64,000 nucleotides of DNA from Flavobacteriales bacterium (GTDB lineage: Bacteria > Bacteroidota > Bacteroidia > Flavobacteriales_F > PHOS-HE28): contig JAHDVX010000005.1 in the NCBI GenBank assembly GCA_023382455.1, forward strand, positions 133,861-197,860, written 5' to 3'. The notes under the pieces are model-generated. The model was not told where the DNA came from. It ran no database searches and was given only the letters and a program-made list of their open reading frames with translations. Every line of letters begins with the position of its first letter. Positions within the stretch are counted from its first letter, which is position 1. This document shows, piece by piece, positions 19,138-62,636 of the stretch. The translations under genes and the position numbers were made by a program.

Positions 19138-21222
19138 TCAGTAGGCACCGCTGCGGCGGCGCAGCAGCCATTCCAGCGTGAGCAGGCCCAGCAGCAGGAA
19201 GAAGATCCAACGCAGCCCGATCAGGTCGCTGAAGCGGTTGTGGGAATAGGAGCGGGCCGCCAGCTCGGGCTTTGCCTGCAGGGCCTCCGCGATGCGGCCC
19301 ATGTCCGCCGGCGTGGTGGCGATGCCACCGGTGCGCGCGGCCATGTTGCGCCACAGCCCATGGTCGGCCACGGTGTTCAGGCGCTCGGCCACCAAGGGTT
19401 TCACCAGGAATTCACCCTTGGCCGTGAGCCGCTCCCCGTCCAACGTGGTGGCCGCGGACCACGTGTAGCGGCCTGCCGGGAGCATCCCGGCATCCAGGCG
19501 GTAGCCGGTGCCGGTGCGGCTAAAGGTGTAGGGCAGCTGGCGCCCCTCCTCGTTCACCAGGGTGATGGTGGCCTCCGGCGTGTTCACGGGCTCGTAGCTG
19601 GCGTTGTACAGCTCCGCGTCCAGCACGATGCGGTCACCTTGGCCGAACTCGCGCTCACCATGCACGCGGAAACGGCTCTTGTCCTCCTTGAGCGCCAAGA
19701 ATTGCACGGTCTTTTGCACCAGCTCGTCGAAATGGGCGGTGGTGTTGTTCTGCCGCATGTCGGCCAGGCGCCAGCGCCACAGGCCCTCGCCGCAGGTGAT
19801 GGCCGTGCGCCGCTCGGTCCGGGCCTGGAAGGCGAACAAGGGCTGGTCCGTCACCACCTGGCCGATGCGCTGCTCCAACAGGGCGGTGGCCGAACGGCCC
19901 AAGGAATAACGGCCGAAGGGCACCTGCAGCGGCGGGAAGCGTTCGATGGCCTTTCGGGTCCCTTCCTCCAGCACGAAGAGCGAAAATCCATCCGGCACCT
20001 TCGCCTGCACGTCCGAATAGCTGCCGCGCCCGGGCTCGATGGCCACGCCGTTGCCGAGTTCATCGGCTTGCCGCAGGTTGGTCTGCTGGCCCAGGATGGT
20101 CCAAGTGGGCGTGCCGCGCTTGGCAATCTGCTGGAACACCGGCTGAAGCGGGGCGTCCGTGGCGGGCAGCTGGTGGAGGATGATCAGGTCGTAGGCCTCT
20201 GCACGCCCCGCGAGGTCGGCCGCCAGGGCCACGTCCACCGCGTAGCCCTCCATGCCGGCCAGCGCCTGCCGGATGGCGGCCACGTCCGGATGTGGCGAAC
20301 GTGCGAGGATCAGCACCTTGCGCCGGTCGTCCAGCACGTCCACATAGATCTCGCGCCGGTTGTTCTCCACGCTGATCTCGCCATCCACCGTGCGCAGCAC
20401 CACCGTGAAGCGCTGCAGGCCCGAGGCCTCGGCCTTCACCATCAGGGGCACCTCGGCCATCAACGGGTCCTGCCCGATCACGAGGTCCTTGCCGGCCACC
20501 TCCTTGCCTGCATGCAGCACGCTCACGCGCGTTTTCCCGCCCTTCAAGTGGTCGGCCCGCAGCTTCACCAGCACCGGGAATTCATTGCCCAGGTAGGTGA
20601 TGCGGTTGTGTTCCACGTCGCGCAGCACAAGGTCGGGCCGCACGGTGGTATCGCCCAGCATGATGGCAAAGACCGGCACCCCCAGGCGTTCCGCCGCCAG
20701 GCGCGGGTCGCGGCCACGGTTGTAGATGCCGTCCCCGTCGATGATCACCGCTCCCAGGTCAGGTCCGGCGAAACGGTCGTACACCGTGCGGAAGAGTTCG
20801 TCAATGTCCGTCTCTTCCTCGTGCTGGCCGAAGTGCAGGCCGTCCGAAACGCCGTTGCCGTATGTGAAACTGCGCACCTCATAGCGGTCGCCCAGTGCAG
20901 CCGCCAGGTCGGTCAGTTGCGCCGGATAGCTTCCACGGAATGCCGTGCTGTCCCCGACCGCCAGCAGGGAGGAGGACCCATCGTGCGCCAGCACCACCAC
21001 GGGCTTGCGCACCTCGCGCACCAGTATGCGCACCATGGGTTCCAGCAGGAAGAAGGCCACCAGCGCGATCACCACTGCACGGCAGGTCCCCAGGAACCAT
21101 TGCAGCCCGGGGCTCCAGCCATGCTGCATGCGCGTGCCGCGGTACAACAGCCAGGCCGCCACAATGCCCAGCAGCGCGCACAACGGTGCCAGCCAAAGGG
21201 AATGCGCGGTGGTGAGGCTCAT
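19138..21222 (-). CDS. N-terminal double-TM (two-anchor, Bat-like) membrane protein with degenerate vWA-like region and C-terminal TM, 694 aa
   Basis: Two N-terminal TM helices, VVVLAHDGSSS, and a C-terminal TM (IFFLLLGLLTLEWLL). Function unknown. Confidence 0.55.
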   Translation of the reverse strand: MSLTTAHSLWLAPLCALLGIVAAWLLYRGTRMQHGWSPGLQWFLGTCRAVVIALVAFFLLEPMVRILVREVRKPVVVLAHDGSSSLLAVGDSTAFRGSYPAQLTDLAAALGDRYEVRSFTYGNGVSDGLHFGQHEEETDIDELFRTVYDRFAGPDLGAVIIDGDGIYNRGRDPRLAAERLGVPVFAIMLGDTTVRPDLVLRDVEHNRITYLGNEFPVLVKLRADHLKGGKTRVSVLHAGKEVAGKDLVIGQDPLMAEVPLMVKAEASGLQRFTVVLRTVDGEISVENNRREIYVDVLDDRRKVLILARSPHPDVAAIRQALAGMEGYAVDVALAADLAGRAEAYDLIILHQLPATDAPLQPVFQQIAKRGTPTWTILGQQTNLRQADELGNGVAIEPGRGSYSDVQAKVPDGFSLFVLEEGTRKAIERFPPLQVPFGRYSLGRSATALLEQRIGQVVTDQPLFAFQARTERRTAITCGEGLWRWRLADMRQNNTTAHFDELVQKTVQFLALKEDKSRFRVHGEREFGQGDRIVLDAELYNASYEPVNTPEATITLVNEEGRQLPYTFSRTGTGYRLDAGMLPAGRYTWSAATTLDGERLTAKGEFLVKPLVAERLNTVADHGLWRNMAARTGGIATTPADMGRIAEALQAKPELAARSYSHNRFSDLIGLRWIFFLLLGLLTLEWLLRRRSGAY

Positions 21223-21237
21223 GGGTTCAAGTTGCCG

Positions 21238-21352
21238 GTTGTCAGTTGTTAGTTGTTAGGGGGAGAATCGACAACGGACAACGGACAACCAACAACTAAC
21301 AACTGACAACTGAGAACTGAGAACGGACAACAGACAACGAACCACGGACAAC
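21238..21352. repeat. 20-bp inverted repeat (21238-21257 / 21291-21310) embedded in a 12-unit degenerate tandem heptamer array (NNACAAC / TGAGAAC, 21269-21352)
   Basis: Units are cgacaac ggacaac ggacaac caacaac taacaac tgacaac tgagaac tgagaac ggacaac agacaac gaaccac ggacaac. Three reverse-orientation units (gttgtca gttgtta gttgtta) lie upstream. The 7-nt period precludes coding. Confidence 0.8.
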
Positions 21353-21357
21353 CACCA

Positions 21358-22107
21358 TCACGTCAACATCCCCCCGCATACATGCAGGGTCTGCCCGGTG
21401 ACGTAGCCGCTGAGGTCGCTGGCGAGGAAGACGCAGGCATTGGCCACGTCCACGGGTGTGCCGCCGCGCTTCATGGGGATGGCCTCGCGCCAGCCTTGAA
21501 CGGTCTTTTCGTCCAAGGCTCCCGTCATCTCGGTTTCGATGAAGCCCGGCGCCACGGCATTGCAGCGGATGTTGCGGCTGCCCAGCTCCAGGGCGGTGCT
21601 CTTGGTGAAGCCGATCACGCCGGCCTTGCTGGCCGCGTAGTTGGCCTGGCCCGCGTTGCCTTTCACGCCCACCACGCTGCTCATGTTGACGATGCTGCCG
21701 CTGCGCTGCTTCAGCATGGTGCGCAGCACCGCCTTGGTCATGTTGAAAACGCTCTTGAGGTTGGTGGCGATCACCGCGTCGAAGTCGGCCTCGCTCATGC
21801 GCATCAGCAACTGGTCCTTGGTGATGCCCGCGTTGTTCACCAGGATGTCCAGCCCGCCGAAGGCCTCCACCACCTGGTCCACGGTGGCCTGTGCCGAATT
21901 GAAGTCCCCCGCGTTGCTTTGGATGGCCAGCACCTTGCGGCCATGCTTCGCGCCCAGTTCCTCGGCCAGGGCGTTCGCCTTTTCCGGGCTGCTCACGTAG
22001 GTGAACGCCACATCCGCGCCCTCTTCAAGGAAGCGCTCCACGATGCCTTTGCCGATGCCGCGCGTGCCGCCGGTGACCAGCGCCTTCTTGCCTTGTAACA
22101 GTGCCAT
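21358..22107 (-). CDS. fabG: 3-oxoacyl-ACP reductase
   Basis: KKALVTGGTRGIGKGI Rossmann motif, NNAG and YAASKAG SDR catalytic motifs. 249 aa. Confidence 0.9.
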   Translation of the reverse strand: MALLQGKKALVTGGTRGIGKGIVERFLEEGADVAFTYVSSPEKANALAEELGAKHGRKVLAIQSNAGDFNSAQATVDQVVEAFGGLDILVNNAGITKDQLLMRMSEADFDAVIATNLKSVFNMTKAVLRTMLKQRSGSIVNMSSVVGVKGNAGQANYAASKAGVIGFTKSTALELGSRNIRCNAVAPGFIETEMTGALDEKTVQGWREAIPMKRGGTPVDVANACVFLASDLSGYVTGQTLHVCGGMLT

Positions 22108-22217
22108 GCCTTGTTAGCGGTTGCTTGATATGGGGCGAAGGTAAACGGGGGGGAGTAATGGGGCGCCAGAATAGGAAAGTTGCGCAGTTGCGGCCTTCAT
22201 TGGACGCAGGCCACGCC

Positions 22218-22266
22218 CAACAACCGGGAACCAACAACTGAGAACCGACAACTGAGAACCGACAAC
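22218..22266. repeat. second degenerate heptamer array (7 units: caacaac cgggaac caacaac tgagaac cgacaac tgagaac cgacaac) immediately upstream of fabG
   Basis: Same unit family and orientation as the 21269-21352 array. The two arrays bracket fabG. Confidence 0.8.
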
Positions 22267-22277
22267 GACCCTTCAGG

Positions 22278-22346
22278 CCACCACCTCCTTCACCTTCGCC
22301 CCGATCGCCGCCGGGCTGTCCACCACGTGGATGCCGCATTCGCGCA
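22278..22346 (-). pseudogene. 69-bp perfect direct-repeat copy of the sucD 3' end (encodes ...[23 protein letters not shown]), a displaced gene-end fragment
   Basis: Identical to 23116-23184 inside the sucD 3' end. The track ORF 22273..22665 is chimeric: a SucD-identical C-terminus on an R/P-rich non-protein-like N-terminus. Confidence 0.75.
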
Positions 22347-22539
22347 AGAAGATCATCCGCGATGGACGATCTTGTGCCGGCATGTCAGCAGCGGAGCACC
22401 GGAAGGGAAGGCGGCCCAGTACAAAGGGCAAACATGAACGTGGCGCTGCGCGACGGATCCGGGATGCCGGGAAGGAGGCAGTGGATCGGAACCGGTGGCC
22501 GCCGCGCAAGCGCCCGATAGGTTGGAAGGGGCCATGGCC

Positions 22540-23110: not shown

Positions 23111-23980
23111 CTAGCCCACCACCTCCTTCACCTTCGCCCCGATCGCCGCCGGGCTGTCCACCACGTGGATGCCGCATTCGCGCATCACCATCTTCTTGGC
23201 GGCCGCGCTTTCGTCGGCCCCGCTTACGATGGCGCCCGCGTGGCCCATGGTGCGGCCCGCGGGGGCGGTCTCACCGGCGATGAAGCCGACCACGGGCTTC
23301 TTGCAGTTCTCCTTGATCCATCGTGCGGCACGGATCTCCAGGTCGCCGCCGATCTCGCCGATCATCACGATGGCCTCGGTCTCCGGGTCATTGGCGAAGA
23401 GCTGGATGGCCTCCAGCGTGGTGGTGCCGATGATCGGATCGCCCCCGATGCCGATGGCCGTGGTGATGCCCATGCCGGCCTTCACCACTTGGTCCGCCGC
23501 CTCGTAGGTGAGCGTGCCGCTCTTGGAGACGATGCCCACCTTGCCCTTCTTGAAGACGAAGCCCGGCATGATGCCCACCTTGCATTCTTCCGCGGTGATC
23601 ACGCCGGGGCAGTTGGGCCCGATCAGCGTGCAGCCCTTGCCCTTGATGTACTCGCGGGCCGTCACCATGTCCTTCACGGGGATGCCCTCGGTGATGCACA
23701 CGATCACCTTGATGCCCGCCTCGGCGGCCTCCATGATGGCATCTGCCGCGAAGGCCGGCGGCACGAAGATGATGCTCACGTCCGCCCCGGTGGTCTTCAC
23801 CGCATCGCTTACCGTCTCGAACACGGGCCGGTCCAAATGCTTCTGCCCGCCCTTGCCCGGGGTGACGCCGCCCACCACGTTGGTGCCGTACTCGATCATC
23901 TGGGTGGCGTGGAAGGTGCCTTCGCTGCCGGTGAAGCCTTGTACAATGACCTTGCTCTGCTTGTTGACGAGTACGCTCAT
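23111..23980 (-). CDS. sucD: succinate--CoA ligase [ADP-forming] subunit alpha
   Basis: 289 aa. [25 protein letters not shown]-terminus and the conserved His-phosphorylation region GHAGAI. Confidence 0.95.
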
Positions 23981-32084: not shown

Positions 32085-32147
32085 GTACGAAAGTTAGCCC
32101 GGGATGTGATCGGGATCGGGTTGAACGTGGAGGAACGATGGCGAAAA

Positions 32148-32192
32148 GGTGATCGGTGAATGGTGGTCGGGGATCATCATTCACCGATCACC
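32148..32192 (-). terminator. intrinsic terminator of the DedA gene: perfect 15-bp inverted repeat (GGTGATCGGTGAATG ... CATTCACCGATCACC), 15-nt loop, followed on the minus-strand transcript by UUUU
   Basis: Seen directly; lies between the DedA stop (32212) and the aroE start (32084). Confidence 0.6.
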
Positions 32193-32211
32193 ACTTACCG
32201 ATCAGCAATTT

Positions 32212-32874
32212 TCACTGCGCAGCAGCCTTCCCCCCGAACCGCATCCGCGCGAACTCGATCAGCATGGGCAGCACCGAGATGAACACGATGGCCAGGATCA
32301 CCATCTCGTAGTTCTTCTGCACGAAGGGATGCTGGCCGAACAGGTAACCGGCCAGGGTGAGCAGGGTGATCCACAGGATGCCCCCCGCGATGTCGAAAGG
32401 AAGGAACTTGCGGCGGTAGTCCATGCGGCCCACCCCCGCCACGAACGGGGTGATGGTGCGCACAATGGGCACGAACCGTGCGATGATGATGGTGCGCACG
32501 CCGTATTTGGCGAAGTAGCCCTGGGTCTTCGCCAGGTCCTTTTCCCGCACCAGCCGCTTGCCGAACAGGGTCCATTGGGTGACGCGTTCGCCGAAATAGC
32601 GGCCCACCCAGTAGTTGATGTTGTCGCCCAGGATGGCGGCCGGGATCAACAGCGCCAGCAGCAAGGAAAGCTCCAGGGAGCCCAGCGCGGCCAGCGAACC
32701 GGCCACGAACAGCAGGGAATCACCGGGCAGGAAGGGCATCACCACCAGGCCGGTCTCCACGAAAATGATGGCGAAGAGCAGGAGGTAGATCAGGTTGCCG
32801 TGGTCCTGGATGAACGCGGGCAGTGTCTCGTTCAAGTGGGTGATGAAGTGCCAGAAGGAGAGAATGAGATCCAT
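32212..32874 (-). CDS. DedA/VTT-domain membrane protein
   Basis: FVETGLVVMPFLPGDSLLF and GRYFG DedA signature. Confidence 0.85.
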   Translation of the reverse strand: MDLILSFWHFITHLNETLPAFIQDHGNLIYLLLFAIIFVETGLVVMPFLPGDSLLFVAGSLAALGSLELSLLLALLIPAAILGDNINYWVGRYFGERVTQWTLFGKRLVREKDLAKTQGYFAKYGVRTIIIARFVPIVRTITPFVAGVGRMDYRRKFLPFDIAGGILWITLLTLAGYLFGQHPFVQKNYEMVILAIVFISVLPMLIEFARMRFGGKAAAQ

Positions 32875-38547: not shown

Positions 38548-39687
38548 ATGGAACGCATCTATCTCGACAACGCCGCCACTACCCAACTGGACCCCGAGGT
38601 GATTGAGGCCATGCTGCCCTACATGCACGAGGTCTACGGAAACCCCAGCGCCATCCATGCCTTCGGGCGCAAGGCGCGGGCCGGCATCGAGCAGGCGCGG
38701 CGCATGGTGGCCAAGCTGCTCCACTGCGCACCGGGCGAGATCGTCTTCACCAGCTGCGGCACCGAGGCCGACAACATGGCCGTGTTCGGCAGTGTGCGCG
38801 ACCTGGGCGTGAAGCACGTGATCACCTCGCCCATTGAGCACCATGCCGTGGAGCATGTGGCCCAAGCGCTGGAGCGTACCAAGGAGGCCGAGGTGCATTG
38901 GCTGCGGCTGCAACCCGACGGCAAGGCCGACCTGGCCCACCTGGAGGAGTTGCTGAAGGCGCACCAGAACGTGCTGGTCTCGCTGATGCACGCCAACAAC
39001 GAACTGGGCACCCGCAACGACCTGATGGCCATCGGCACCCTCTGCCGCAAGTACGGCGCGCTTTTCCACACGGACACCGTGCAGACCATGGGCCACTACC
39101 GCTTCGACCTGGAACAGCTGCCCATCGACTTCCTCACCTGCAGCGCGCACAAATTCCATGGCCCCAAGGGCGTGGGCTTCCTGTACATGCGCAGCAGCTC
39201 GGTACTGCGGCCCATGATCGTGGGCGGGGCGCAGGAGCGCAACATGCGTGCCGGCACGGAGAACATCATCGGCATCGTGGCGCTGGCCAAGGCCATGGAA
39301 GTGGCCTACCGCGACCTCGATGAGCACCAGCGCCACATCCAGGCGTTGAAGGACCGCATGCGCGAGCGCATCCTGGCCAACATCCCCGGCAGCAGCGTCA
39401 ACGGCGACCCAAGCCCCGACAGCCTGTACACCGTGCTCAACATCCACCTGCCGGATGACGGCAAGGCCGAGATGCTGATCTACAACATGGACATCGAGGG
39501 CATCGCGTGCAGCGGCGGCAGCGCCTGCAGCAGCGGCAGCAACAAGGGCAGCCACGTGATCGACGCGCTCTATCCCGGCCGCATGGGCGCCAACATCCGC
39601 TTTTCCTTCAGCAAGTTCAACACCGAGGCCGACGTGGACCGCGCCGCGGAGGTGCTGGAGAAGGTGGTGATGCCGGTGGGGGTGTGA
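38548..39687 (+). CDS. cysteine desulfurase (NifS/IscS, class V aminotransferase)
   Basis: [13 protein letters not shown]-terminus, [13 protein letters not shown]-lysine, catalytic Cys loop [12 protein letters not shown]. 379 aa. Confidence 0.9.
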
Positions 39688-39696
39688 GTGGGTCCA

Positions 39697-39710
39697 GTTC
39701 TTAGTTGTCA
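39697..39710. repeat. two heptamer units (gttctta gttgtca) of the same family as the fabG-flanking arrays, in the 20-bp gap between the nifS stop and the HIRAN stop
   Basis: Seen directly; overlaps the HIRAN stop codon. This is the left boundary of the ~8-kb segment that ends at the nifS 3'-end remnant. Confidence 0.5.
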
Positions 39711-43026: not shown

Positions 43027-45873
43027 ATGCCGCTCAGCCGCCGCGAGATCCGCACCCGGGCCGTCCGTTTTGTGAAGCACTGGAAGGAGGCCGCCAACGA
43101 GGAGGCCGACGCCAAGCCCTTCTGGTACGAGTTCTTCCACATCTTCGGCATCCGCGCACGCACCGTGGGCAGCTACGAAGTACACGTGCGCAAGCTGGAC
43201 AATGCCCTGGGTAAGATCGACTACTTCTGGCCCGGACTGCTGCTGATCGAGCACAAGAGCCGTGGCCGCGACCTGCAGAAGGCCGCCGTGCAGGCCGCCG
43301 ACTACCTCCATGGCGTAAAGGAGCATGAGAAGCCCCGCTACATCATCGTCAGCGATTTTACACGCTTCGTGCTGCATGACCTGGAGGAGGGCAGCGAAAT
43401 CGAACTGGCCCTGGAGGAACTGCCGGAACGCATCGGCCTCTTCGACTTCATCGCCGGCTACGAGGCGCGGCCCGTGCGCGAGCAGGACCCCGTGAACATC
43501 CGCGCCGCCGAGCTGATGGGCCAATTGCACGACGAGCTCAAGGCCTCCGGCTATGCCGGCAAGGAGCTGGAAGTCTACCTCGTGCGCCTGCTCTTCATCC
43601 TCTTCGCCGACGATACCGGCATCTTCGAGCTCGATGCCTTCTACAACTACATCGTGGACCAAACGCGTGAGGACGGCACCGACCTCGGCCCGCAACTGGC
43701 CCGCCTGTTCCAACTGCTGAACACCCCGCCGGAAAAGCGCCAGAAGAACCTGGACGAGCGCCTGGCCGACTTCAAATACATCAACGGAAAGCTCTTCGCC
43801 GAGCCGCTGCCCATCGCCGATTGGAACGGCGGCATGCGCGTCACCTTGCTGGAATGCGCCAGCCTCAACTGGAGCCGCATCAGCCCGGCCATCTTCGGCG
43901 CCCTCTTCCAAAGCGCCATGGACGCCAAGGCCCGCCGCAACCTCGGCGCGCACTACACCAGCGAGGCCAACATCCTCAAGCTCATCAAGCCGCTCTTCCT
44001 CGATGAACTCTGGGCCGAGTTCGAGAAAGTGAAGGGCAGCAAGCCCAAGCTGGACCGGTTCCACAAGAAGCTCAGCGAACTGCGCTTCCTGGACCCCGCC
44101 TGCGGCTGCGGAAACTTTCTGGTGATCACCTACCGCGAGCTGCGCGAACTGGAGATCGCCGTGATAACCGCGCAACTGAAAGGCCAGCAGGTGGTGGACG
44201 TGGACAAGCTGGTGCTGCTGAACGTGGACCGCTTCTACGGCATCGAGATCGAGGAATTCCCCGCGCAGATAGCCCAGGTGGCCCTCTGGCTGATGGACCA
44301 CCAGATGAACCAGCGCATCAGCGCCGCTTTTGGCGAGTACATGGTGCGCATCCCGCTGCGGGCCAGCGCCACCATTTTATGCGCGAATGCGTTGCGTACC
44401 GATTGGCAAAGCCTGCTGCCGGATGGCGAGCGGTACGATTACATACTTGGGAATCCGCCGTTCATCGGCAGTAAACTGATGACCCCTGAAATGCGCGCGG
44501 CCATCCTGCGCATCTTCCCCGGGGTGAATGGCGCGGGCACATTGGATTTCGTGTGCGGCTGGTACGGTCTGGCCGTGCAGTACATGAAGGCACAGCGTGT
44601 CAGGCCGAGCGAAGCCGAGCAGCGTGTCAGGCCGAGCGAAGCCGAGCAGCGTGTCAGGCCGAGCGAAGCCGAGGCCACACGCTGCGCTTTTGTGAGCACC
44701 AACAGCATTACGCAGGGCGAACAAGTGGGCGCACTGTGGGGACCGCTGCTTGCCCAAGGCATCAAGATCCACTTTGCACACCGCACCTTCCGCTGGAACA
44801 ACGAGGCCCGTGGCGTGGCCGCTGTGCACTGCGTCATCATCGGCTTCGCGGATCACGATACGGACAAGAAGCACCTCTTCAGCTACGCCGATGAACGCGG
44901 CGAAGCGGAAGAACAGTTGGTGCGGAACATCAACCCGTACCTGGTGGATGGGCCGGACGTGGTGATCCGCAGCCGAAGCAAGCCGCTTTGCAAGGTGCCA
45001 GAGATCGGCATTGGAAACAAGCCCATCGACGGAGGTAACTACCTCTTCACCGATGAGGAGAAGGCTGCGTTCATCCATTTGGAACCAGCGTCCAAGAAGT
45101 ATTTCAGGCGCTGGTTGGGCAGTGATGAATTCATCAACGGCTGGCACCGCTGGTGCCTTTGGCTAGGCGAAGCGGCTCCAGGTGAGTTGCGCTCCATGCC
45201 GGAGGTGATGAAGCGCGTGGAAGCCGTGCGCAGGTTGCGGCTGGAGAGCAAGAGCGCGCCCACCCGCAAGCTGGCCGAAACCCCGACCCGCTTCCATGTG
45301 GAGAACATGCCGAAGAAGGAATACCTGATCATTCCGGAAGTTTCTTCGGAACGGCGGCCATTCATTCCGATCGGCTTCGAGAACCCAAGTACGCTTGCAA
45401 GCAACTTGGTCAAGATCCTTCCCAACGCATCGAAATACCACTTCGGCATCCTGAGCAGCACCATGCACAATGCGTGGATGCGAGCCGTCTGTGGAAGGTT
45501 GAAGAGTGACTACCGCTACTCCAAGGACATTGTCTACAACAACTTCCCTTGGCCCACCAATCCTACTGTCGCGCAACAGGCGGCCGTGGAGCAGGCCGCG
45601 CAAGGCGTGCTGGATGCGCGTGCAGCGCACACCACCCCTGTCAGTTCGAGCGCAGCCGAGAACGGCAGGGGTGCCAGCCTCGCCGACCTCTACGACCCGC
45701 TCACCATGCCGCCCAACCTGGTAAAGGCCCACGCCGCGCTGGACAAGGCCGTGGACAGGTGCTATAGGCCGCAAGCCTTCGAGAGCGATGCCAAACGGGT
45801 GGAGTACTTGTTCGGGTTGTATGAGAAGTACACGGCGGGGTTGGTGGGGGTGAAGTTGACCAAGAAGATGTGA
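43027..45873 (+). CDS. MmeI-family Type IIL restriction-modification enzyme (fused PD-ExK endonuclease + gamma-class N6-adenine methyltransferase + TRD), 948 aa
   Basis: N-terminal D-x-EHK nuclease motif (GKIDYFWPGLLLIEHKSRGRDL) closely resembling the MmeI N-terminus; DPACGCGNFL (motif I), ILGNPPF (motif IV), FVSTNSITQGEQV; length close to MmeI (919 aa). Confidence 0.85.
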   Translation: MPLSRREIRTRAVRFVKHWKEAANEEADAKPFWYEFFHIFGIRARTVGSYEVHVRKLDNALGKIDYFWPGLLLIEHKSRGRDLQKAAVQAADYLHGVKEHEKPRYIIVSDFTRFVLHDLEEGSEIELALEELPERIGLFDFIAGYEARPVREQDPVNIRAAELMGQLHDELKASGYAGKELEVYLVRLLFILFADDTGIFELDAFYNYIVDQTREDGTDLGPQLARLFQLLNTPPEKRQKNLDERLADFKYINGKLFAEPLPIADWNGGMRVTLLECASLNWSRISPAIFGALFQSAMDAKARRNLGAHYTSEANILKLIKPLFLDELWAEFEKVKGSKPKLDRFHKKLSELRFLDPACGCGNFLVITYRELRELEIAVITAQLKGQQVVDVDKLVLLNVDRFYGIEIEEFPAQIAQVALWLMDHQMNQRISAAFGEYMVRIPLRASATILCANALRTDWQSLLPDGERYDYILGNPPFIGSKLMTPEMRAAILRIFPGVNGAGTLDFVCGWYGLAVQYMKAQRVRPSEAEQRVRPSEAEQRVRPSEAEATRCAFVSTNSITQGEQVGALWGPLLAQGIKIHFAHRTFRWNNEARGVAAVHCVIIGFADHDTDKKHLFSYADERGEAEEQLVRNINPYLVDGPDVVIRSRSKPLCKVPEIGIGNKPIDGGNYLFTDEEKAAFIHLEPASKKYFRRWLGSDEFINGWHRWCLWLGEAAPGELRSMPEVMKRVEAVRRLRLESKSAPTRKLAETPTRFHVENMPKKEYLIIPEVSSERRPFIPIGFENPSTLASNLVKILPNASKYHFGILSSTMHNAWMRAVCGRLKSDYRYSKDIVYNNFPWPTNPTVAQQAAVEQAAQGVLDARAAHTTPVSSSAAENGRGASLADLYDPLTMPPNLVKAHAALDKAVDRCYRPQAFESDAKRVEYLFGLYEKYTAGLVGVKLTKKM
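44593..44673 (+). repeat. perfect 27-bp x3 in-frame tandem repeat (cagcgtgtcaggccgagcgaagccgag) inside the MmeI-like gene, encoding (QRVRPSEAE)x3
   Basis: Seen directly. Located between the MTase motif IV region and the FVSTNS motif. Confidence 0.85.
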
Positions 45874-47489: not shown

Positions 47490-47580
47490 CGCGACCCGGC
47501 GGGGACGGGGACAAGGGCGGTCACGTCATTGATGCGCTCTACCCGGCCGTACCGGGGCCAACATCCGCTTTTCCTTTCGT
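47490..47580 (+). pseudogene. decayed ~75-bp remnant of a NifS/IscS cysteine desulfurase 3' end (about 80% identical to 39541-39610, with a frameshift)
   Basis: acaagggcggtcacgtcattgatgcgctctacccggccgt-accggggccaacatccgcttttcctt aligns to the intact gene's ...[23 protein letters not shown]... region, including a 19-nt identical run. Confidence 0.55.
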
Positions 47581-61199: not shown

Positions 61200-62636
61200 T
61201 CAGAAGGATTTCTCCATCTCCGCGGCCTTGCGGAAGAGCAGGTGGTTCTCCAGGGAGATGTGGATGTGCGTGTCGTCGTCCAGTTCCTTCAGTTTGCGGA
61301 ACAGCAGCGAGTAGCTGGCACAGGCATCCTCCGGCGGCGCATAGCCTCCGGTGATCTCATGCAGCTCGTCGATCATGCCGCCTACCGAGGTGTGCTCCTT
61401 CACCAGCTTGTCCAACTTGTCCTGGAAACGGCCCATGCTGCTCGCGGGCAGCGGCTGGCCGGAGTTCTTGGCGGCCACCAGTTGCTTGATGTACGGGAAC
61501 ATGGTCTTCTCCTCGTCCGTGGCGTGCTCCAGCAGTTCATCGCTCACGGCCTGTACCAATTCGTTCACGCGGTGCAGCTCGGGGTGGTGCGCGCCGTGCA
61601 CCTTTTCCACCTTGGCCGAGTACATCTTGATGTCCGGGAGGTTCTTCCGCAGGAAGCCGTGGTGGGTATTCACGATGAAGTCCGCCAGGAAGTCGATGCT
61701 CCATTCATGGTAGGGCAGGGCGGAGCGGCTTTGGTCCTTCTCCACTTCACGCAGTTCCTGTTCCACGCGCGTCACGTCGATGCCCTTTGCGGCGCAGGCT
61801 TCGTTCAGGGTCATGTCGCCGTGGCAGCAGAAGTCCAGGTCGTGTTTCTTGAACACTTCGGCCTTGCGCATGTCCTTGGCCACGATCTCGCCGAGGGTCT
61901 CACCCGTGGTGCCTTGCGGCCGCTTGGTGATCTTCACCCGCCACCACCGCGGGCCCTGCTCCAAGTATTCCCAGGTGAACACGTCACCCATTTCTCCCTG
62001 CATCTGGTAGTACAGCGGCTTGGGGTCATGGTCGTTGTGGATGGTCAGGCTTTCACCTCCTTGCAGGGCGTGGTAGCGGCTGAAGATGGTGGGGTGCTTC
62101 TCGCGCGGGGCCAGCTTGGTCACGTCCAGGATGTTCTCGCCGCTCCCATCGGCCCCGGCGATCTTGCGGGTGATCTTCACTTTCCACCACACCGGGCCTT
62201 GCTCCAGATACTCCCAACCGAAGGCGTCGCCATGCTCGGCTTCCAAGTGGTAGCGTAGCGGAACGGGATCGTGGTCGTTATGGATGGTTAGGCTTTCGCC
62301 GCCCTGCAACTGGTCGATCCGGGCGAAGATGGTGCTGTGCTTCACCATCGGCGGCAGCTGGGTGACGTCAAGGATGTTCCGGCCTTTCTCATTCTGTGGG
62401 GCGCGCTTGGTGAGCTTCACCTTCCACCATTCCGGGCCTTGCTCCAGGTATTCCCAGGCAATGGTGTCCTGGTGCGTGTGGGCCAGCTGGTAGCGCAGCG
62501 GGGCGGGGTCGTGGTCGTTGTGGATGATCAGGCTTTCGCCATCCTGCAATTGGGCGATGCGGTTGAAGATGGTGCTGTGCTTCATCATCGGCGCCAGTTG
62601 GGTCACGTCCAGGATCTGCTCGGTCGTTGTTTCCAT
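61200..62636 (-). CDS. 3x DUF2249 repeats fused to a RIC (ScdA/YtfE, repair of iron centres) hemerythrin-like di-iron domain, 478 aa
   Basis: Three ~85-aa units ILDVTQLxPxxKHxTIFxRxxxLQxGESLxIHNDHDPxPLxY...WEYLEQGPxWWxVKI, then a ScdA/RIC-like domain with His-rich motifs (HHGFLRKNLP, HGAHHPEL). Confidence 0.7.
   Translation of the reverse strand: METTTEQILDVTQLAPMMKHSTIFNRIAQLQDGESLIIHNDHDPAPLRYQLAHTHQDTIAWEYLEQGPEWWKVKLTKRAPQNEKGRNILDVTQLPPMVKHSTIFARIDQLQGGESLTIHNDHDPVPLRYHLEAEHGDAFGWEYLEQGPVWWKVKITRKIAGADGSGENILDVTKLAPREKHPTIFSRYHALQGGESLTIHNDHDPKPLYYQMQGEMGDVFTWEYLEQGPRWWRVKITKRPQGTTGETLGEIVAKDMRKAEVFKKHDLDFCCHGDMTLNEACAAKGIDVTRVEQELREVEKDQSRSALPYHEWSIDFLADFIVNTHHGFLRKNLPDIKMYSAKVEKVHGAHHPELHRVNELVQAVSDELLEHATDEEKTMFPYIKQLVAAKNSGQPLPASSMGRFQDKLDKLVKEHTSVGGMIDELHEITGGYAPPEDACASYSLLFRKLKELDDDTHIHISLENHLLFRKAAEMEKSF

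Follow-up and report, generated by a model that had tools for sequence, protein, structure and literature searches.

What role, if any, do short tandem repeats play when they fill the spacer between two genes transcribed in the same direction, with some of their units inverted just ahead of the second start codon? The question is raised by two arrays of degenerate GTTGTNN heptamers that flank fabG in a 64,000-nt stretch of DNA (hereafter the window; positions 133,861 to 197,860 of contig JAHDVX010000005.1, assembly GCA_023382455.1), which comes from a high-GC (~65%) lineage of uncultured Flavobacteriales. Among the long simple-sequence repeats (SSRs) of many bacteria, tandem heptamers are the most frequent type, and the typing of strains has made use of them since 1990. 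The reading that we favor, with a probability of roughly 0.45, is that array A, a polar inverted heptamer array between fabG and the gene of a 694-aa membrane protein, would act as an intercistronic RNA hairpin that masks the G-poor leader of the downstream gene and thereby tunes its output.

Read in the sense of the genes, array A starts after the fabG stop codon with TGGTG, the first unit lying 5 nt past the TGA, followed by the twelve units GTTGTCC, GTGGTTC, GTTGTCT, GTTGTCC, GTTCTCA, GTTCTCA, GTTGTCA, GTTGTTA, GTTGTTG, GTTGTCC, GTTGTCC and GTTGTCG, then ATTCTCCCCCT, the three inverted units, GGCAACTTGAACCC and the ATG of the 694-aa gene (Table 1). The inverted arm stops 15 nt 5' of this ATG at 21222, and the leader is G-poor and without a Shine-Dalgarno (SD) sequence, the latter being normal since the host belongs to the Bacteroidota. 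Array B, on the other side of fabG, begins 6 nt past the TGA of a displaced copy of the sucD 3' end and has the order TGA, AGGGTC, GTTGTCG GTTCTCA (twice), GTTGTTG, GTTCCCG and GTTGTTG. The unit counts and positions given in the initial annotation (12, 3 inverted and 7) agree with the sequence. Specifically, Tandem Repeats Finder (TRF) recovered both arrays with a period of 7 or 14, and a search for GTTGTNNGTTGT with at most one mismatch yielded 19 matches in the window, as compared with 1.68 expected and a maximum of 6 across 100 shuffles, 17 of them falling inside the two array clusters. The isolated one-mismatch matches in the window, two in number, are what chance predicts; the two-unit copy behind the nifS-like gene, which the initial annotation had placed at the left edge of an 8-kb nifS-flanked segment, is present but not distinguishable from chance. 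Within the 64 kb there are only the two arrays and this one seed, and one extra array was found in the orthologous locus L142 (loci from other genomes are designated by L and a number). Both arrays are intergenic on a gene map based on GC at third codon positions (GC3), the gene calls in L001-L010 and protein families, which bears out the earlier view that they do not code. The arrays are non-coding heptanucleotide SSRs with the consensus GTTGTYR, of the STRR or long-SSR (LSSR) class. Array B would be a lone member of this family, at the usual position after a stop codon.

Table 1. Positions of the arrays, the predicted hairpin and neighboring features in the window
Feature	Position	Strand	Remarks
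Array A, long arm	21269..21352	- (gene sense)	12 GTTGTNN units (variants GTTCT, GTGGT); sequence reading, TRF
Array A, short inverted arm	21238..21258	- (gene sense)	AACAACT AACAACT GACAACC; sequence reading, TRF
Predicted hairpin	21230..21318	-	arms 21291-21318 / 21230-21257; 28 nt at 89%, perfect over 20-22 bp
Array B	22217..22266	- (gene sense)	~7 units, period 14 (GTTGTCG GTTCTCA; GTTGTCGGTTCTCA); sequence reading, TRF
Two-unit seed	39697..39710	+	GTTCTTA GTTGTCA; 9 nt past stop of nifS-like gene
Duplicate of sucD 3' end, 83 nt	22275..22357	-	93% to 23113-23195
sucD	23980-23111	-	identity above NCBIfam cut-off
fabG (3-oxoacyl-ACP reductase), upstream cistron	21358..22107	-	identity above NCBIfam cut-off; stop codon at 21358-21360
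694-aa membrane protein gene, downstream cistron	19138..21222	-	start codon backed by conserved N-terminus
Order around the arrays		-	sucD, 838-bp insertion, array B, fabG, array A, 694-aa gene, DUF218 gene; all genes around the arrays on this strand

On the minus-strand RNA, the two arms of array A are predicted to pair. We found perfect complementarity over 20 nt (21291-21310 with 21238-21257), verifying the hairpin that had been described as ending 15 nt before the AUG, and in the folding proposed as a check the strand formed an uninterrupted 22-bp stem (-65.4 kcal/mol, z = -3.7). The predicted loop comprises 33 nt and includes GGGGGAGAA on the plus strand, the predicted pairing covers the initiation region to about -4 of the 694-aa gene, and the sequence after the stem is CGGCAACUUGAACCC. 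The stem does not resemble an intrinsic terminator, as no U-tract follows it and a scan for sigma-70 promoters and terminators returned 0 terminator-like sites in 20900-22500; a single sigma-70 promoter-like match was set aside as irrelevant for Bacteroidota promoters.

The arrays are unstable in length. We compared ten loci (L001-L010) from genomes and metagenomes in which FabG is identical to that of the window, and found that their flanks were near-identical apart from unit number, with one or two GTTCTCA units in array A (a difference of 7 nt) and two, three or five double units GTTGTCGGTTCTCA in array B (steps of 14 nt). The variation in repeat number between strains that the initial annotation had suggested looking for is thus found in the form of whole-unit differences; units are gained and lost via slipped-strand mispairing, and the arrays are slippage-prone. 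Contig breaks near array B, considered as a sign of a multi-copy repeat, are explained by the 83-nt sucD duplication together with the heterogeneity of the array.

Orthologous loci, gathered through look-ups of homologous proteins and a metagenome scan, revealed that the layout of array A outlasts its sequence. Five further species, in which the 694-aa protein is 67-73% identical (L131/L132/L137, L133/L134/L157, L135/L136 and L142), share a common arrangement of fabG stop codon, 3-6 nt, 5-15 GTTGTNN units, a spacer of 12-45 nt, 3-4 NACAACN units, 6-15 nt and ATG, the equivalent of the ACAAC arm with its 3-4 units being found in L131, L133, L135 and L142. The units themselves differ from species to species despite the retained layout. 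Each of the array-bearing orthologous spacers was predicted to fold into a long hairpin (z = -2.4, -5.2, -3.75, -1.8 and -1.7), and pairing is kept where the arms vary: GAGAAC with GTTCTC in L131, GGCAAC with GUUGCC in L135, and ACGAC with GUUGUU through G.U in L133. These arm-to-arm compensations were read by eye, as the differing unit numbers rule out an alignment column by column. In addition, the distant locus L171 has a small version of the two-arm layout, and L162 has a plain hairpin on a GGTTGTTCGG / CCGAACAACC core. In a neighbor-joining tree the array bearers make up one clade and one distant case, the clade also including the array-less L138, L144 and L140.

Spacers lacking the heptamers contain other degenerate tandem motifs with a period of ~8-10 nt, namely CAGATG (L138, L139 and L144), CCCACATG (L149 and L151) and GCAACG (L140 and L143), which suggests that intergenic DNA of this lineage generally tends to acquire short tandem repeats whose sequence varies. 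The window itself contains a second tandem-plus-inverted hairpin built on a different unit: at 32090-32212 on the minus strand, the spacer after a gene ending at 32212 has tandem units GTGATCGGTAAGTG / GTGATCGGTGAATG, an inverted copy CATTCACCGATCAC giving a 15-bp stem, and then a CTTTTCG box.

How the 694-aa gene might be expressed is suggested by relatives without the array. Most of them have the sequence GA(C/T)CTT(T/C)GC(A/G)CCCC directly 5' of the start codon, which we read as a -7 promoter element whose gene would have a very short leader. When this box was scored as YTTYGM within 14 nt of the start in 34 distinct upstream regions, 23 had the box only, six had the ACAAC pair only, five had neither and none had both; a lack of any overlap has a hypergeometric probability of 3.4e-4 by chance. 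The window conforms: no promoter-like box separates the array from the start codon of the 694-aa gene. Since array-bearing species have no recognizable start-adjacent promoter, the 694-aa gene would be expressed from transcripts starting upstream of the array, and we infer that their simplest source may be read-through from fabG, which has its own -7-like box, TACCTTCG, ~35 nt ahead of its ATG. In five of the six array-bearing spacers the fabG stop codon overlaps an ATG (TGATG), and the short open reading frame (ORF) that starts there ends within the 5' arm in the window allele and at the ACAAC arm in the allele one unit shorter. We also considered the ACAAC arm as a three-frame stop cassette, with TAA, TAA and TGA at spacer nt 103, 110 and 117 in the window, and rejected this idea as it fails in L135, L142 and L171.

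The family extends far beyond this lineage. When one genome per species was scanned for four GTTGTNN units in a row, at least 120 matches were obtained in 596 Gb, where ~1 match would be expected by chance if base frequencies are equal; the following counts all refer to the 120 matches listed. These came from Cyanobacteria, Bacteroidota, Acidobacteriota, Planctomycetota, Chloroflexota and other phyla, some from genomes with 65-71% GC. Positions 6-7 of the unit are mostly YR (TA, TG, CA or CG), and the commonest variant units are GTTAT, GTTGA and GTTCT, with GTTAT standing beside GTTGT arrays in 18 loci. Through such variants the family is connected with the TAACTGA repeats, whose register is GTTATCA, and with the cyanobacterial STRR3 (GTTGACT). 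For example, the GTTGT arrays of the Calothrix loci L101 and L125 pass gradually into GTTGAC units of the STRR3 (CAACAGT) family; the STRR names reportedly go back to Mazel et al. in 1990. The combinations GTTGTCG GTTCTCA and GTTCTCA GTTGTCA recur in L036 (Hymenobacter rigui), L080 (Planctomycetaceae) and L102 (Bacteroides sp.), and in L036 units of the GTTGTCG/GTTCTCA type directly adjoin an inverted ACAAC array. A shared pattern of substitutions was examined as a binding-site code and discarded, position 4 being simply the most variable (A > C > T), which ties GTTGT to the variants GTTAT and GTTCT and gives no evidence of a strict recognition code.

With the arrays masked and ORFs called by a crude heuristic, two rules of orientation emerged from these matches. 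Arrays at most 25 nt upstream of a start codon were in the ACAAC sense in 27 loci and in the GUUGU sense in 4 (p = 3e-5), or 15 versus 1 in genomes below 50% GC, in which ORF calls are safer. Where an inverted partner lay within 150 nt, the order was 5'-GTTGT..ACAAC-3' in 30 arrays (23 loci) and the reverse in 1. A third tendency, for GUUGU-sense arrays to lie at most 25 nt past a stop codon (20 versus 9 loci; 13 versus 3 below 50% GC), was marginal (p = 0.06). The window locus obeys both polarity rules. Because either arm order gives a DNA palindrome of the same quality and an RNA stem of nearly the same strength, the asymmetry could not be produced by a DNA palindrome alone and points to a process that has a direction, such as transcription or translation; together, the two rules suggest a role at the RNA level, linked to translation, in lineages that dispense with SD sequences. 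Among inverted pairs of other heptamers, sought by eye in the TRF rows, we found only ATTCAAA/AATTTTG in L180 and AATTCCT/GGAATTA in L140, which follow no G/T-first rule, so the polarity is shown for the GTTGT family only.

The repeat class, the instability, the two-arm layout, the predicted hairpins, the exclusivity of array and box and the orientation provide the ground on which masking, processing and tuning may be envisaged. The G-poor, A/C-rich ACAAC tract would be an unstructured leader where SD-blind ribosomes load onto the 694-aa gene, which, having lost its own start-proximal promoter box, would depend on fabG read-through. On the read-through RNA the GUUGU arm would pair with the ACAAC leader in a stem of at least 20 bp, masking the translation-initiation region, and a double-strand-specific RNase could also cut this stem, which is perfect over 20-22 bp, by analogy with the hmw genes of Haemophilus influenzae (PMC12721329). 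The extent of masking, and hence the output of the downstream cistron, would depend on unit number and register; more speculatively, each 7-nt step might also shift the frame of the short TGATG ORF and with it how far a re-initiating ribosome could melt the stem. The structured cis-regulatory leader proposed in the initial annotation is a plausible candidate, strengthened by the layout kept in five other species, by the lack of a promoter-like box between array and ATG and by the polarity across phyla. A broader claim, that 5'-(GUUGUYR)n-loop-(YRACAAC)m-3' might be a widespread cross-phylum post-transcriptional control element, with ACAAC as an SD-independent ribosome landing pad, GUUGU as a built-in anti-leader and 7-nt slippage as a heritable rheostat, seems to us rather unlikely. 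If true, it would supply a function for the STRR/heptamer-repeat puzzle, now 35 years old. The locus is in any case a compact natural test case, as it offers unit-number alleles, five species with the two-arm layout and sister species with a promoter-like box instead.

Several points weigh against hairpin masking. Co-transcription of fabG and the 694-aa gene is an assumption, and the RNA bearing the hairpin is predicted. The window leader has no A at -3 or -6, the bases that favor initiation in Flavobacterium johnsoniae. In a comparison meant to show which strand is the RNA, the sense strand folded better than the antisense strand in only five of seven spacers, the window not being among them. 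Most orthologous loci have no array, hence the element is dispensable, and array B lacks both a partner arm and significant structure (z = -0.17). The ACAAC array of L020 is situated 5' of a promoter-like box and would thus fall outside the leader of that gene. The orientation counts are based on crude ORF calls among the 120 matches listed, in which loci from the same genome are not independent. Finally, in 781 kb of Bacteroidota loci the period of 7 was a peak (75 TRF rows) with many unrelated unit sequences, and the period rather than the GTTGT motif may be the general property.

Whether the arrays mark sites of recombination depends on the duplications nearby. As had been annotated, array B adjoins a displaced copy of the sucD end: the 83-nt direct repeat flanks an 838-bp insertion that carries, on the plus strand, a 161-aa ORF of the Sel1/TPR type, and array B follows the former sucD stop codon, the one in use until the Sel1 element inserted. 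A species 67% identical in the 694-aa protein shares this insertion with its duplication. L135/L136 have both the Sel1 insertion and the sucD-end duplication and no array there, whereas L133/L134 have an intact sucD followed, after its stop codon, by a homologous two-unit seed (GTTGTCGGTTCCCAGGCGTGGCC) and no duplication. At the nifS-like gene, a 35-nt segment of the 3' end (39574-39608) is repeated 7968 nt downstream at 47542-47576 with 89% identity, consistent with an insertion of ~8 kb at the gene end, and no heptamer follows this second copy. In both window cases the heptamers simply come after a stop codon, present or former. The proposed link between the heptamers and gene-end duplication or recombination junctions is not supported by these cases and is rejected. 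In other species the interval between sucD and fabG contains RND-efflux and MarR genes, or a PEMT gene, and judging from these sequences it is a variable hotspot.

Could the arrays instead be neutral or selfish slippage-prone DNA, the inverted arm stemming from a local inverted duplication or a template switch and the hairpin having no role? Such an origin, which we hold to be somewhat doubtful, would account for the drift of copy number between strains, the unstructured array B, the many orthologous loci without arrays and the unrelated heptamers and short tandem motifs that occupy the same spacers in relatives, and an excess of heptamer SSRs in bacteria generally has been ascribed to polymerase slippage (Mrazek 2007, as cited in PMC4679880 and PMC4692102). 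Slippage, however, is blind to strand and gene orientation, and predicts neither the start-proximal ratio of 27 to 4 nor the arm order of 23 loci to 1 among the matches listed; nor does it predict the exclusivity of array and promoter-like box, or a two-arm layout that is kept while the units turn over and the flanking protein becomes ~30% different. If these polarity rules fail, the arrays are ordinary slippage products, of use as strain markers only.

Two further explanations place the function elsewhere. A 3'-end element of fabG, either REP/BIME-like or a non-canonical terminator, which would stabilize the mRNA against 3' exonucleases or attenuate read-through with the downstream gene being incidental, would fit the GUUGU-sense arrays starting 3-6 nt past stop codons in the window and its orthologues, the long predicted stems, the excess of stop-proximal arrays among the matches listed and the Xanthomonas GGGAATC arrays, which lie ~28 nt from the 5' neighboring ORF (PMC4692102). 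We consider it improbable, since the stop-proximal excess is the marginal one, U-tract and terminator-like sites are lacking, array B has no hairpin, and the short arm always adjoins the downstream start, where the loss of the gene's own promoter-like box means that read-through would be needed and not blocked. A platform at the DNA level, with heptamers bound by a DNA-binding protein such as a promoter-architecture, nucleoid or recombination factor, or with slipped or cruciform DNA marking a recombination hotspot, has in our opinion a small chance of being correct. The sucD-fabG interval with its species-specific cargo genes and the position of the L020 array upstream of a promoter-like box would agree with it, as would the report that deletion of heptamers in Nostoc altered the action of LexA and NtcA on a reporter (bioRxiv 10.1101/2022.06.06.494920). 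The junctions without heptamers (L135/L136 and the second nifS-end copy) and the seed without a duplication (L133) argue the other way, units of 7 bp do not stay in phase with the turns of the DNA helix, and a palindromic DNA target leaves the fixed order 5'-GTTGT..ACAAC-3' unexplained. Hairpin masking of the leader is the reading that we retain.

The surroundings of the arrays are those of a bacterium that initiates translation without SD sequences. Bacteroidetes lack SD sequences and tune initiation via mRNA structure and upstream A residues, and their promoters have the form TTTG/TANNTTTG at -33/-7 (PMC6847099). Most genes in the window have either a TT(T/C)G box 8-12 nt 5' of the start codon or a G-poor, A/C-rich leader; such boxes precede the starts at 2383, 23980, 25206, 29749, 38548, 43027, 61123, 62636 and others. 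The start-proximal boxes suggest that leaders are very short or absent in this high-GC Flavobacteriales lineage, in contrast to F. johnsoniae, in which mRNAs are reported to be mostly leadered. The 694-aa protein had no match in Pfam or NCBIfam; it has hundreds of full-length homologues, the named sources of which are metagenome-assembled genomes called "Flavobacteriales bacterium" or "Bacteroidetes bacterium", and a protease neighboring the locus has a type IX secretion system (T9SS) C-terminal sorting domain. Both findings assign the window to the Flavobacteriales and speak against a betaproteobacterial host, which had also been considered. Rfam covariance models at the gathering score gave 0 matches across the whole window, in which tRNA and tmRNA genes were likewise not found. 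Two other tandem repeats in the window lie inside genes: a perfect repeat of 27 nt x 3 (CAGCGTGTCAGGCCGAGCGAAGCCGAG) at 44593-44673, within a 948-aa ORF (43027-45873), encodes a 9-residue repeat, and one with a period of 240 nt (2.6 copies, 74% matches) at 62004-62622, inside a minus-strand gene (61200-62636), is probably a repeated protein domain.

Repeats of closely similar sequence have been described in Nostoc sp. PCC 7120, in which the dispersed intergenic repeats csR1.1 (ttgtcagttgtcagttgtca) and csR1.2 (ttgttagttgttag) occur in 44 and 11 genomic copies, respectively (PMC2408588). The GTTGTCA/GTTGTTA units are identical to those in the window and are likewise intergenic and in tandem; the differences are that the host of the window is a high-GC member of the Flavobacteriales with only two arrays in 64 kb, and that the paired inverted layout ahead of a start codon, a feature of the window, is not described for Nostoc. 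A resemblance in position is seen with the TAACTGA direct repeats described from marine Beggiatoaceae, from Cyanobacteria and from five Bacteroidetes (MacGregor 2015, PMC4679880), which are mostly intergenic and 'forward', lie a few nt upstream of start codons without SD sequences, differ between strains by insertions and deletions in 7-nt steps, and are predicted to be unstructured as RNA; S1, Csp and CsrA have been proposed as binding proteins (PMC4679880). The window has three ACAAC-sense units ending 15 nt before an SD-less ATG, a comparable start-proximal position, but its units TAACAAC and TGACAAC are not TAACTGA, GTTGTCA being one base from the reverse-complement register GTTATCA, and an inverted set, of which only one was reported in the BOGUAY genome, is the main feature of the locus studied here.

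Intergenic repeats other than the GTTGT heptamers provide further parallels. In Xanthomonas and Nostoc, arrays of GGGAATC or GGGGAYT are ~90% intergenic and are kept between the same genes in related species with highly variable length and sequence, some as inverted pairs (Rehm et al. 2015, PMC4692102), although their G-rich units form G-quadruplexes, which GTTGTYR cannot. The REP/BIME elements of Enterobacteria and Pseudomonas are, like array A, intercistronic imperfect palindromes able to form RNA hairpins, and such hairpins, located between genes that share a transcript, change how strongly the cistrons are expressed relative to each other. However, REPs are fixed units of 20-40 bp with a GTAG/CGTC head, mobilized by RAYT transposases (PMC3733652, PMC3116915), and are neither tandem 7-nt repeats nor subject to slippage variation; the arms of array A consist of 7-nt tandem units without any GTAG/CGTC-headed unit, and RAYT genes were not searched for. 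A functional parallel is the (ATCTTTC)n repeat in the 5' untranslated region of hmw1A and hmw2A in H. influenzae. Once transcribed, this repeat pairs as the left arm with a complementary right arm in a long hairpin that RNase III cuts, and the number of units, different between strains, was shown by experiment to set expression (PMC12721329). Array A shares with it a heptanucleotide SSR upstream of a gene, strain-variable unit number and, in silico, a repeat that forms one arm of a long hairpin, whereas hmw has a right arm of non-repeat, G-rich sequence and encodes a phase-variable adhesin in a host with SD-dependent initiation. The arrays of the window belong to an already described class of heptamer repeats and are not a new kind of element.

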